A stretch of 39,195 nucleotides of DNA from Escherichia phage JEP4: the sequence record MT740315.1. One strand, 5' to 3'. Shown here piece by piece: positions 17,482 through 27,788 of the stretch (the stretch's first letter is position 1; each line of letters opens with the position of its first letter). The translations under genes and the position numbers were made by a program. Under the pieces are notes generated by a model. It made no database searches and was not told the origin of the DNA. It was given only the letters and a program-made list of their open reading frames with translations.

Positions 17482-19539
17482 ATGCCTGATATAACCCCAA
17501 ATGTTGTAATTGGGATGCCATCGCAACTCTTCACAATGGCTAGCTCTTTTAAAACCGTAGCAAATGGAAAAATTTATATCGGTAAGATTGACACAGATCC
17601 GGTAAATCCAGAAAACCAGATTCCAGTATATCTGGAACGAGAAGATGGTACTTATGTTCAGGTGCCACAGCCAATCGTTATCAATGCTGCTGGATACCCG
17701 GTATACAACGGACAGATTTCCAAATTCGTTACCGTGCAAGGCCATTCTATGGCTGTTTACGATGCATATGGTACGCAGCAGTTCTATTTTCCGAATGTGC
17801 TGAAATACGACCCGGATCAGTTAAGACAAGAGTTAGCAACAGAGGGTAATGAAATACTTGTTGACGACTCCCGTATTGCAGTTAAAAGTGTTCATGTAAA
17901 TTCAAAACTTAGAACACAGCACAATAAAAACGCAGAAATAATCACGCCAAATGATTTTATATCAAATTATGACATGATATCTGCAGCTATTAACTCTGGA
18001 GAGAGTGCCGCAGTATTTAATTCCAGGTATGCATTCACAATAACAGTTGGGGAATATGGTAATTTTAAATCTATTAGTGATGCTCTAAACTCAGCTGTTG
18101 CACTGCGTCCACTATGGAAAAATGGCATTGATTTTTGCATAATTAAAATTCTTTCCGGTTTTGTGCTCAATGAGCAAATAGAAATTTCAGCAGGATGTGA
18201 CTTATCATGGATTAAAATAATATCAGAAGACTCAGTGGTTTTCTCTGATACCAGTTTGTTTACTAAAACTGTTAGGACGTATTACGAATACAAATATTTA
18301 TTTTACATTTGCGATGCAGCAAAAAGTCCTGTATTTGCTATTCAGATTGAAGAAAATAGAGATGATAGCGATGTTTGTGCATTTATTGTAACTCAAAAAG
18401 CTGAACTTAATTTCTATCCGTATTCAGGTGCTCGAAAGTTCTACGTTGGAATTCATGGTAGTTTTGGTGCAAAAATTAGTGCATATCATACCGGATGTGC
18501 TCCTGATGAGGAAAGTGTTGCTGCATATATGCCAGAAGGGTATTACGTATGTGATTTTTCTTATAGCAGATACTCTTCCCTGCAACTGGTAAATAATGTC
18601 AAGGCATCAATGCCTGTAAGCAAGTTTGAACGGTGCACAGAGAGTACGGTTGCGTCAGTTAATTGTATTTATAATGTTAAAGCAGATTTTCAGGGGTCAA
18701 GTGCAAGCTATTGTTATATAGGATGGAATGTAAGAGATGGTTCAAATGTTAATATACGCGACCATAAAACTATACATTGCTCATATCGTGGATTAACCTG
18801 CATTCATACAGCATATGTTGATGCAAGACGACATGACGTTGAAGAAAGTGATGCAGAAACAAGTGGTAAAGTCCTTGAACCAAATATTGAAAAAGGTTTT
18901 TATGGATGTGCACTTGGTGTGCGTATTGATGGTGCGGGTTGTGTTGATGTTGCTGGTAATGATATGCGCAATTGTGGAACAGCCGTTAATGCAGACACTG
19001 GTGCTGTTATTTCAGGAAAAGCTGTAGATATCTCAGGGGCTGAGTTGGGATTTGATTGCCATGCAGGAGCATCTGTTAATTTTCCAAGGCTATGGGGTAC
19101 AGATATAAAAAAATTAATGCACCTCCAAGATGGTGTAAGGTTTAACTCTAATATTTGTCATGTATTTGGTGCAAATCCCACAAAAGATATTAGATGGATT
19201 GATGTAGAGAGATCTGAAGCTTCTTTTATGAATGCAACGCTGGATGCAGATTCAGGATTTATTGCTGACTGTGGTAGTAGGATAACCATTGAAGGAAGTA
19301 AAGTTAAAAACCAAACAATAAGAAGTTTTTTTGGATCACATGTGGCTATAAATAATACTGTTGCTGACAGAACTTATTCAGATATAGCCGATGTTCCGCA
19401 GTTGACTATTAGTGGAGGATCTTTTATTTCTGCTACAGGATATTCTAATTCTGACTCCAGCCCTCTTAGGTTGAGCACAACACGAAATACACTTGGAGTT
19501 GGAGGAGCCATATTTTCAACCAATGGGGAAGTTTCATGA
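17482..19539 (+). CDS. Tailspike protein: P22-family head-binding N-domain plus divergent receptor-binding domain
   Basis: N-terminus MPDITPNVVIGMPSQLFTMASSFKTVANGKIYIGKIDTDPVNPENQIPVY matches the P22 gp9 head-binding domain pattern; remainder is AT-rich and unrelated to my recollection of P22 gp9; ORF-track start 17389 is an extension. Confidence 0.85.
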   Translation: MPDITPNVVIGMPSQLFTMASSFKTVANGKIYIGKIDTDPVNPENQIPVYLEREDGTYVQVPQPIVINAAGYPVYNGQISKFVTVQGHSMAVYDAYGTQQFYFPNVLKYDPDQLRQELATEGNEILVDDSRIAVKSVHVNSKLRTQHNKNAEIITPNDFISNYDMISAAINSGESAAVFNSRYAFTITVGEYGNFKSISDALNSAVALRPLWKNGIDFCIIKILSGFVLNEQIEISAGCDLSWIKIISEDSVVFSDTSLFTKTVRTYYEYKYLFYICDAAKSPVFAIQIEENRDDSDVCAFIVTQKAELNFYPYSGARKFYVGIHGSFGAKISAYHTGCAPDEESVAAYMPEGYYVCDFSYSRYSSLQLVNNVKASMPVSKFERCTESTVASVNCIYNVKADFQGSSASYCYIGWNVRDGSNVNIRDHKTIHCSYRGLTCIHTAYVDARRHDVEESDAETSGKVLEPNIEKGFYGCALGVRIDGAGCVDVAGNDMRNCGTAVNADTGAVISGKAVDISGAELGFDCHAGASVNFPRLWGTDIKKLMHLQDGVRFNSNICHVFGANPTKDIRWIDVERSEASFMNATLDADSGFIADCGSRITIEGSKVKNQTIRSFFGSHVAINNTVADRTYSDIADVPQLTISGGSFISATGYSNSDSSPLRLSTTRNTLGVGGAIFSTNGEVS

Positions 19540-19835
19540 TTAAGAGCATTGATGTCACTCCATTTCTTCACTCGCTTTGCGCTTTTGCGGCTCAGGTACT
19601 GGTTGGTATTTTTACCGGAAACTGGGCTTACGGTGCGATAGCCGGTTGTACGTTCTTCATTGCGCGTGAACACACCCAGGCAGAATATCGCTGGATAGAA
19701 AAGTTTGGGAAAGGGAAACGTGTCAACATGCCGTGGTGGGGAGGTTTTGATCCACGCGTGTGGGATGTGGGAAGTTTGTTGGATTTTTCTTTCCCAATTA
19801 TCGGATGCTTATTGGTATGGATTCTTGCATCGTAG
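19536..19835 (+). CDS. Small membrane protein (99 aa) translationally coupled to tailspike; candidate lysogenic-conversion/superinfection-exclusion moron
   Basis: ATGA overlap with tailspike stop; hydrophobic segments AFAAQVLVGIFTGNWAYGAIAGCTFFIA and FSFPIIGCLLVWILAS; followed by terminator. Confidence 0.6.
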   Translation: MIKSIDVTPFLHSLCAFAAQVLVGIFTGNWAYGAIAGCTFFIAREHTQAEYRWIEKFGKGKRVNMPWWGGFDPRVWDVGSLLDFSFPIIGCLLVWILAS

Positions 19836-19923
19836 CGAACACATAATTACCTATGAGACAAAACTGAGACACACAAAGCTTTGCACTGGATTGCAAGGCT
19901 TTGTGCTCTTCGATAGTGGTTAA

Positions 19924-19943
19924 GGTGGATCACTCCACCTTTT
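19924..19943 (+). terminator. Rho-independent terminator after tailspike-moron unit
   Basis: GGTGGA-tcac-TCCACC followed by TTTT. Confidence 0.55.
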
Positions 19944-20034
19944 CATCAATCCAGTCCGCCCACCATTGCATCATTTCTCTGCGTTTATCGAGATACTGCG
20001 CGTGGTTGTAAATTCAGCAAACGACGTAATGTGT

Positions 20035-20079
20035 TTGACAAAAAATTAGCGCAAGAAGACAAAAAATCACCTTGCGCTA
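20035..20079 (-). terminator. tI/sib-like terminator hairpin downstream of int transcript
   Basis: Perfect 10-bp inverted repeat TTAGCGCAAG...CTTGCGCTAA followed on the minus strand by TTTTTTG; position beyond the attP P arm as in lambda. Confidence 0.6.
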
Positions 20080-20330
20080 ATGCCCTGTCTCAGGTCACTA
20101 ATACTATCTAAGTAGTTGATTTATAGTGACTGGATATGTTGTGTTTTGTCGCATTATGCAGTCTATTTTTTAGACTAAAGATAATGTAATGCATTGATAT
20201 TAATGGTTTTTAATGTTTCACGTTCAGCTTTTTTATACTAAGTAGGCATTATAAAAAAGCATTGCTTATCAATTTGTTGCAACGAACAGGTCACTATCAG
20301 TCAAAATAAAATCATTATTTGATTTCAATT
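20080..20330. other. attP: attP (lambda-type), core GCTTTTTTATACTAA at 20227-20241
   Basis: Lambda common core 15-mer present; P-arm arm-type site CAGGTCACTAATAC and P-prime arm CAGGTCACTATCAGTCAAAATAAAATCATTATTTG adjacent to int. Confidence 0.8.
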
Positions 20331-21385
20331 TTGTCCCACTCCCTGCCTCTGTCATCACGATACTGTGATGCCATGGTGTCCGACTTATGCCCGAGAAGAT
20401 GTTGAGCAAACTTATCGCTTATCTGCTTCTCATAGAGTCTTGCAGACAAACTGCGCAACTCGTGAAAGGTAGGCGGATCCCCTTCGAAGGAAAGACCTGA
20501 TGCTTTTCGTGCGCGCATAAAATACCTTGATACTGTGCCGGATGAAAGCGGTTCACGACGAGTAGATGCAATTATGGTTTCTCCGCCAAGAATCTCTTTG
20601 CATTTATCAAGTGTTTCCTTCATTGATATTCCGAGAGCATCAACATGCAATGTTGTAGGGATGGCAATTTTTACGCCTGTTTTGCTTTGCTCGACGTAAA
20701 GATATCCATCTACGATATCAGACCACTTCATTTCGCATAAATCACCAACTCGCTGCCCGGTAACAACAGCCAGTTCCATTGCAAGTCTTAACCAACATGG
20801 TGATGATTCTGCTGCTTGATAAATTTTCAGGTATTCGTCAGCCGTAAGTCTTGATCTCCTTACCTCTGATTTTGCTGCGCGAGTGGCAGCGACAGGGTTT
20901 GTTGTTATATGGCCTTCAGCTATTGCCTCTCGGAATGCATCGCTCAGTGTTGATCTGATTAACTTGGCTGACGCAGCCTTGCCCTCGTCTATGTATCCAT
21001 TGAGCATTGCCGCAATTTCTTTTGTGGTGATGTCTTCAAGTGGAGCATCAGGCAGACCCCTCCTTATTGCTTTAATTTTGCTCATGTAATTTATGAGTGT
21101 CTTCTGCTTGATTCCTCTGCTGGCGAGGATTTTTTCGTAGCGATCAAGCCATGAATGTAACGTAACAGAATTATCACTGTTGATTCTCGCTGTCAGAGGC
21201 TTGTGTTTGTGTCCTGAAAATAACTCAATGTTGGCCTGTATAGCTTCAGTGATTGCTATCCTCCTGTCTCGGCCTAATCCAAACTCTTTACCCGTCCTTG
21301 GGTCCCTGTAGCAGTAATATCCATTGTTTCTTATATAAAGGTTAGGGGGTAAATCCCGGCGCTCATGACTTCGCCTTCTTCCCAT
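20315..21385 (-). CDS. int: Integrase (tyrosine recombinase), lambda Int-type
   Basis: 356 aa beginning MGRRRSHERRDLPPNLYIRNNGYYCYRDPRTGKEFGLG, matching lambda Int essentially throughout as recalled. Confidence 0.95.
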   Translation of the reverse strand: MGRRRSHERRDLPPNLYIRNNGYYCYRDPRTGKEFGLGRDRRIAITEAIQANIELFSGHKHKPLTARINSDNSVTLHSWLDRYEKILASRGIKQKTLINYMSKIKAIRRGLPDAPLEDITTKEIAAMLNGYIDEGKAASAKLIRSTLSDAFREAIAEGHITTNPVAATRAAKSEVRRSRLTADEYLKIYQAAESSPCWLRLAMELAVVTGQRVGDLCEMKWSDIVDGYLYVEQSKTGVKIAIPTTLHVDALGISMKETLDKCKEILGGETIIASTRREPLSSGTVSRYFMRARKASGLSFEGDPPTFHELRSLSARLYEKQISDKFAQHLLGHKSDTMASQYRDDRGREWDKIEIK

Positions 21386-21581
21386 TTCTGATCCTCTTCA
21401 AAAGGCTACCTGTTACTGGTCGATTTAAGTCAACCTTTACCGCTGATTCGTGGAACAGATACTCTCTTCCATCCTTAACCGGAGGAGGGAATATCCTGCA
21501 TTCGCGCACCCATCGACGAACTGTTTCAAGGCTTCTTGGGCGTCGCTGGCGAGCGTTCCACTCCTGAAGTGTCAAGTACAT
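21363..21581 (-). CDS. xis: Excisionase, lambda Xis-type
   Basis: 72 aa MYLTLQEWNARQRRPRSLETVRRWVRECRIFPPPVKDGREYLF; 23-nt overlap with int as in lambda. Confidence 0.9.
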   Translation of the reverse strand: MYLTLQEWNARQRRPRSLETVRRWVRECRIFPPPVKDGREYLFHESAVKVDLNRPVTGSLLKRIRNGKKAKS

Positions 21582-21620
21582 CGCAAAGTCTCCGCAATTA
21601 CACGCAAGAAAAAACCGCCA

Positions 21621-21788
21621 TCAGGCGGCTTGGTGTTCTTTCAGTTCTTCAATTCGAATATTGGTTATGTCTGCATGTGCTATCTGCGCCCATATTATCC
21701 AGTGGTCATAGCAGTCGTTGATGTTCTCTGCTTCGATAACTCTGTTGAATGGCTCTCCATTCCATTCACCTGTGACTCTGAAGTGCAT
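21621..21788 (-). CDS. Small hypothetical protein (55 aa; below ORF-track cutoff)
   Basis: Read directly: MHFRVTGEWNGEPFNRVIEAENINDCYDHWIIWAQIAHADITNIRIEELKEHQAA; same position as the small ORF next to xis in lambda. Confidence 0.45.
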   Translation of the reverse strand: MHFRVTGEWNGEPFNRVIEAENINDCYDHWIIWAQIAHADITNIRIEELKEHQAA

Positions 21789-27699: not shown

Positions 27700-27788
27700 G
27701 TTGACCTCCGATGATTGACTTTGGCGGTGACGCGCCGGGTGCTTATCTTCCGGTTGCCGTCGTGCAGCTGCACTTCACGCCACCCCAA

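Follow-up and report, generated by a model that had tools for sequence, protein, structure and literature searches.

The segment at 20092-20318 of the Escherichia phage JEP4 genome most probably constitutes a functional lambda-type attP (POP′) within a lambda integration cassette that is complete and has a P22-like podovirus as its carrier, a reading to which we assign a probability of roughly 93%. The window analyzed here is the whole 39,195-nucleotide stretch of record MT740315.1. Directly seen are the sequence anatomy of the site, the near-identity of Int and Xis to the lambda proteins, and the occurrence of the same allele as attL and attR at attB in Escherichia coli genomes.

Anatomy of the attachment site

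The 15-bp lambda common core, GCTTTTTTATACTAA, occurs in the window as a single exact copy (20227-20241, 0 mismatches), in a search that allowed up to 2 mismatches and for which 0.10 chance matches were expected. Sequence comparison places two inverted core-type sites, C and C′, on either side of the overlap, as in a lambda-type attP. Alignment of the window with lambda (J02459 26500-29500, attP being J02459 27583-27854) shows that the two phages are alike in the core, the overlap, C, P1, H1, P2, X1, H′, P′1 to P′3, the pI cII box and the sib/tI hairpin, but differ in the T that lambda has at +10 and in the carrier, which is a lambda-like siphovirus in one case and a P22-like podovirus in the other. 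When the sites were compared one by one, P1, P2, P′1, P′2 and P′3 proved identical to those of lambda in both sequence and spacing, and the three IHF motifs (H1, H2 and H′) were all present and fitted WATCAANNNNTTR. The P′ arm from +11 to +95 is identical to lambda at 85/85 positions, and P′3 overlaps the int stop codon, as it does in lambda (Table 1).

An initial annotation, made from the letters alone, had described an intact lambda-type attP in the non-integrated configuration, with the lambda core and the P′ arm adjacent to int both present, and all of this holds: the site has the POP′ form, it is bordered left and right by phage DNA (tailspike gene and int, respectively), and attB flank sequence is found nowhere in the window.

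Table 1. Features of the JEP4 integration region. Coordinates refer to the window; positions in brackets are relative to the center of the core, and fractions are identical positions over positions compared.
Feature	Sequence	Coordinates	Strand	Comparison or basis
Scar of an older integration module, outside the lambda attP		19857..20010	-	translation, tblastn, HK633 DNA alignment
tI terminator / sib retroregulatory hairpin	stem UUAGCGCAAGG...CUUGCGCUAA, then U6	~20040..20083	- (int-sense)	fold and homology
P1 arm-type Int site (-142..-133)	AGGTCACTAA	20092..20101	+	= lambda; invariant in 10 natural alleles; inside lambda feature 'int 1'
H1 IHF site	reverse complement AATCAACTACTTA	20109..20121	-	= lambda; fits WATCAANNNNTTR
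P2 arm-type Int site	reverse complement CAGTCACTAT	20123..20132	-	= lambda; invariant in 10 alleles; inside lambda feature 'int 2'
X1 Xis site	TATGTTGTGTTTT	20135..20147	+	= lambda; invariant in 10 alleles
Variable core-proximal P arm (X1.5, X2, Fis core, H2, spacers)		20148..20224 (-86..-10)	.	alignments
X1.5		20148-20154		3/7 vs lambda
X2	TATGCAGTCTATT	20155-20167		11/13 vs lambda
Fis core		20161-20175		12/15 vs lambda; outer G and C retained
H2 IHF site	TAATGCATTGATA	20187-20199		differs from lambda at two N positions of the consensus only
C core-type Int site	CAGCTTTTT	20225..20233	+	= lambda; invariant across 10 natural alleles
7-bp overlap O (place of strand exchange)	TTTATAC	20232..20238	.	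= lambda; = FORC_082 attL/attR junctions
C′ core-type Int site	top ACTAAGTAG, bottom CTACTTAGT	20237..20245	-	lambda CAACTTAGT; 8/9 match
H′ IHF site	TATCAATTTGTTG	20267..20279	+	fits consensus; = lambda
P′1, P′2, P′3 arm-type Int sites	AGGTCACTAT, CAGTCAAAAT, AAATCATTAT	20288..20318	+	= lambda; invariant in 9 alleles
int, lambda-type tyrosine integrase, 356 aa		20315..21385	-	353/356 vs lambda Int (99.2%)
xis, excisionase, 72 aa		21363..21581	-	71/72 vs lambda Xis (98.6%); G59S common to 434 and HK97
pI promoter cII box, directly upstream of xis	TTGCGTGTAATTGC	21594..21607	-	= lambda and 434; annotated in 434 as CII binding site / pI

The sequence immediately right of the core reads GTAGGCATT in JEP4 and GTTGGCATT in lambda (lambda 27739-27747), the sole substitution there being T>A at 20244 (GTAGG as opposed to GTTGG). 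In the Landy numbering, with the central T of the core as 0 and the overlap TTTATAC at -2 to +4, this position is +10. The change is the only one in C′, where it affects the second-outermost base pair of the 9-bp site. Because it lies outside the overlap, it would create no heteroduplex mismatch with attB and would stay on the prophage side, in attL, after integration. The numbering, the core-type consensus and the residues that separate HK022 from lambda specificity are classical background (Ross & Landy 1983; Landy 1989; Dorgai/Yagil/Weisberg 1995); searches of the open-access literature for the core-type consensus string and for the phage 434 attP yielded nothing useful.

The P arm differs from lambda by 28 substitutions, of which 22 fall within the 77 bases of 20148-20224 (55/77 identical, 71%); the block formed by P1, H1, P2 and X1 matches at 58/64 positions. 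Within the variable stretch, X1.5, X2 and the Fis core carry 2-4 changes each relative to lambda, and the same variants are found in 434, HK97 and HK106. Only the bases at 20084 and 20122 have no counterpart in the phage set, and E. coli FORC_082 has both. In the pairwise alignment the site is thus not identical to lambda attP and the difference is real, as the initial annotation had suspected: it had given the lambda sequence right of the core correctly, had assigned the substitution to the C′ core-type Int site, and had found the P arm noticeably unlike lambda between P1/P2 and the core.

The HK022-type core and overlap (…CTTTAGGTGAA…) are absent, the core block matching HK022 and Gally at 11/21 positions and the P′ arm at 57-60/85. 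A tRNA search over the whole window found none, and the site is therefore not an att site of the tRNA type.

Natural alleles of attP

Phage alleles were compared in an alignment of 12 sequences, and conservation was assessed site by site over 10 natural alleles. The best match to the P arm over 181 bp is HK106 (95% identity), followed by HK97 and ev099 (94%), Huey (93%), 434 (91%) and lambda (84%), and the core-proximal part (20148-20224) ranks in the same way for HK106 (74/77), HK97 (69/77), 434 (66/77) and lambda (55/77). Among the 10 natural alleles, the variable columns lie mostly in the spacers between the Fis site and H2 and between H2 and C, together with X1.5, while no variation is seen in the Int arm sites, X1, C or the overlap. 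Judged from these alignments, the part of the P arm that diverges from lambda is a region of spacers and accessory sites that is hypervariable in nature, and JEP4 has the HK106/HK97 allele of it.

HK106 (JQ086369) and HK97 (AF069529), which carry the closest P-arm alleles, also share the whole P′ arm (85/85) and have an annotated lambda-like attP or core, but retain the lambda base T at +10, and the HK97 Int lacks A245T. The 434 attP (M60848; OL657226 24869-25104), by contrast, has the same T>A at +10 and an identical core block (21/21), as well as Int substitutions H164P, A245T and I248V and an Sf6-type integrase scar left of sib; it departs from JEP4 by an additional A>C at +14 (GTAGGCCTT), by N129S in Int, and in the proximal P arm. 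The differences between JEP4 and lambda, both at +10 and in the P arm, are already known in natural phages and prophages and are not peculiar to JEP4. Record MW057783.1 ('Campylobacter phage CJLB-4', 48,361 bp) matched the query with the same identity and at nearly the same coordinates as lambda, and looks like lambda DNA under a Campylobacter phage name.

The integration cassette

JEP4 Int differs from lambda Int by H164P, A245T and I248V. The catalytic residues R212, K235, H308, R311, H333 and Y342 are all present, and lambda-type residues occupy positions 99, 282, 283, 287 and 319, the positions of HK022/lambda specificity. The allele with these three substitutions corresponds to WP_000533643.1, found in the prophages of FORC_082 and 'numer 3'. 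A245T accompanies the A at +10 of C′ in JEP4, 434, FORC_082 and 'numer 3', and is missing from 22KM0354; co-evolution of the two was considered and rejected, since 22KM0354 has +10A without A245T and the positions are only ~400 bp apart, which points to linkage rather than co-adaptation.

Folded as minus-strand RNA, the tI/sib hairpin has a dG of -28.9 kcal/mol (z -4.8), with 0/200 shuffles as good. It agrees with lambda in 42/44 columns of 20040-20083, one difference being an extra loop A and the other a gap at 20040 that is an artefact of a lambda slice beginning one base inside the A run, and with HK97, Huey and 434 in 43-44/44; the homologous place is annotated as 'sib retroregulation site' in HK97 and as 'terminator' in 434. 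A tI/sib-like hairpin beyond the P arm had been noted at the outset, and the fold supports it, but the span first given for it (20035-20079) was displaced relative to the one in Table 1. The long, bulged stem of tI caused it to escape a simple terminator scanner, which picked up a hairpin upstream of xis instead; direct folding was decisive. In Rfam, a search of 19500-21700 at E<=1 returned a chance sRNA match only, and there is no family for sib.

A GC-rich hairpin followed by a T run (21612-21631, minus strand) is found directly upstream of the pI cII box and xis; it is kept in lambda, and the HK97 and 434 records have a terminator annotated at the corresponding place. As sib/tI, attP, int, xis and pI are all found, JEP4 has the full lambda cassette.

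Genome context and an older integrase scar

The window (1-39195) starts at the ATG of the small terminase gene and comprises a complete, mosaic P22-like (Lederbergvirus-like) genome, the left half of which has P22-like podovirus matches (portal, coat, DNA-transfer proteins and tailspike) and the right half lambdoid early regions. Neither half is covered to 80% or more by any record in the phage collection; partial relatedness is greatest to phiv205-1, EC.P3 and E212 for the left half, and to Gally and CUS-3 for the right.

Directly left of sib, 19930-20010 (minus strand) corresponds to the C-terminal 26 codons of an integrase of the Sf6/HK633 type (NHAQYLDKRREMMQWWADWIDEKVE*), with 96% identity to the integrase C-termini of Sf6, HK633 and IME10 by tblastn, and alignment with HK633 DNA adds ~70 nt of sequence from downstream of the integrase gene. 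PGAP annotates this region as a pseudogene fragment in FORC_082, and 434, ev099, Huey, PDP110P1 and Salmonella phage 29485 have the same scar to the left of their sib. It is what remains of an earlier integration module, whose place the lambda sib-attP-int-xis cassette has taken. The possibility that a relic of a second attP is present left of sib was considered and rejected: homology to HK633 ends just before the annotated attP of that phage, and the scar is therefore only partial. Within it, 19881-19904 (plus strand) contains two overlapping matches to TTGY-N6-TTGY, and the homologous bases are annotated as CII binding sites in the 434 record. The pair could equally be read as relic arm-type repeats of a lost Sf6/HK633-type attP; over the whole window this motif occurs 14 times against 10.7 expected, which is not above chance.

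Occurrence as attL and attR in E. coli

In E. coli FORC_082 (NZ_CP026641, 3149296-3178010), a P22-like prophage is inserted with ybhC on one side and ybhB-bioA on the other, in the order ybhC, attL (GTAGGCATT...), int ... tailspike, attR, ybhB-bioA. Its attL reads ...GAATCCGTTGAAGCCT, GCTTTTTTATACTAA, GTAGGCATTATAAAAAAGC..., and in its attR the JEP4 P arm is followed by CTTGAGCGAAACGGG. Compared over 120 bp on each side, neither arm differs from JEP4, so that rejoining them gives the exact JEP4 attP, and identity on the P-arm side extends to 100% over 392 bp. By this comparison, with the arms of JEP4 found as attL and attR at ybhC-ybhB, the site integrates at the canonical lambda attB. The FORC_082 prophage resembles JEP4 in being P22-like and in its identical Int protein, but it is integrated, with attP split, is ~10 kb shorter, and has a different tailspike. 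It measures ~28.7 kb, is missing the region for immunity, replication and lysis, and includes several pseudogenes (locus 3149000-3186000); it is a decayed relative of JEP4 and is probably not inducible.

The same attL, that is the same C′/P′ allele, adjoins ybhC in 'numer 3' and 22KM0354; the 'numer 3' prophage measures ~39.8 kb and appears to be intact. A 74-nt query covering the core, C′ and the P′ arm was run against 5,426 complete E. coli genomes, 1,927 of which have a lambda-type site; the exact JEP4 allele is present in 3, in every case adjoining ybhC, and the 434-type allele in 6, so that +10A accounts for ~0.5% of lambda-type attL/attP sites in complete E. coli genomes. In IMG/VR, at least 5 attL sites have +10A (3 JEP4-type and 2 434-type) compared with at least 105 that have the lambda base, and among the matches listed all attL sites with +10A carry the attB left flank. 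By these counts, the +10A allele is rare, yet repeatedly used at the canonical attB.

Alternative interpretations

Some observations count against a functional attP. The rarity of +10A (3 exact and 6 434-type among ~1,927 sites) is what a variant with a mild disadvantage would show; departures from lambda exist in X1.5, X2 and the Fis core, as described above; and the FORC_082 prophage is deleted and may be stuck, proving integration but not excision. In a further interpretation, compatible with the main one, the attP works but the T>A at +10, the HK106-type proximal P arm, or both would quantitatively tune the efficiency or directionality of integration and excision, for instance through weaker binding of Int at C′ or altered cooperativity of Xis and Fis. 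We regard such tuning as possible, though doubtful. C′ does depart at position 2 from the core-type consensus, CAACTTNNT, and both the low frequency of the allele and the changes in X1.5, X2 and the Fis site would agree with it. However, the B site of lambda itself, CTGCTTTTT, also has T at the position changed in C′ (CAACTTAGT to CTACTTAGT), several unrelated prophages, as well as the laboratory phage 434, retain +10A, the P-arm changes lie mainly in spacers that vary in all natural alleles, and descent alone can account for the rarity.

Relatedness breaks sharply at the core, the P′ arm, int and xis being ~99-100% identical to lambda, as opposed to 71% for the proximal P arm, which is 96% identical to HK106; moreover, the C′/P′ allele is joined to different P arms in other lysogens. 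We tentatively raise, as an unlikely but conceivable origin, that this break might have been left by an Int-mediated exchange in which attL and attR came from different prophages sharing attB.

A change in target specificity, with integration away from the lambda attB, is highly improbable. Bases of the core-type sites outside the overlap contribute to specificity in the lambda/HK022 pair, which offers a precedent for an effect of a +10 substitution. Against this, 9/9 E. coli genome matches checked or listed carry the attB left flank ...GAATCCGTTGAAGCCT, as do the +10A attL sites among the IMG/VR matches listed; the overlap is that of lambda; Int has lambda residues at the positions known for specificity; and HK022-type cores are quite unlike that of JEP4 (11/21). 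Altered specificity was consequently rejected, given the canonical attB flank on all +10A attL sites. It is equally improbable that, in place of a true attP, the site represents an attL or attR junction of a prophage or an artefact of assembly or circularization: the window does begin exactly at a gene start, suggesting a rearranged record, but the two arms are of phage type and adjoin without interruption, the window is free of attB flank sequence, and the arrangement of tailspike left and int right is the exact product of joining the FORC_082 attR to attL.

Proposed mechanism

The preferred reading, a functional lambda-type attP, has a ready mechanistic model in lambda, where Int bridges arm and core sites on DNA bent by IHF, and excision additionally involves Xis, with or without Fis (PMC4880445). 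By analogy with lambda, from which we infer protein binding, the order of exchange, rates, retroregulation and RNase III processing, the N-terminal domain of Int would occupy the arm-type sites of the circularized JEP4 genome and the C-terminal domains C and C′. IHF would bend the DNA at H1, H2 and H′, and the resulting intasome would capture attB between ybhC and ybhB, in the gal-bio interval. Strands would then be exchanged at the edges of TTTATAC, in two ordered pairs, to produce attL (B-O-C′-P′-int) and attR (sib-P-C-O-B′), and excision would be the reverse reaction, requiring Int, Xis (at X1, X1.5 and X2) and IHF, and optionally Fis.

The tI/sib hairpin would terminate transcripts from pI, and in read-through transcripts from pL it would form an RNase III target leading to destruction of int mRNA, only while attP is unsplit. 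Because sib/tI lies beyond the P arm, integration shifts it to the far end of the prophage, which is the basis of lambda retroregulation; in the FORC_082 prophage sib is indeed at the attR end, far from int.

Significance

The JEP4 attP is already known as a natural allele of a textbook element, and its description carries little weight beyond annotation, where it fixes the ybhC-ybhB (gal-bio) site and the integration and excision logic of a P22-like phage. The natural alleles can be used as a list of tolerated changes in the engineering of lambda att sites, for example for Gateway-type cloning. If the break at the core does reflect exchange between prophages, site-specific recombination would itself shuffle whole phage halves, here a P22-like virion module and a lambda-like early region, and the rare +10A C′ would mark a lineage and might, in addition, tune the affinity of C′. 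For lambda-type attP sites as such, the alleles compared indicate that nature tolerates T>A at +10 of C′, and that the stretch from X1.5 to the flank of C is the freely varying part of the element.
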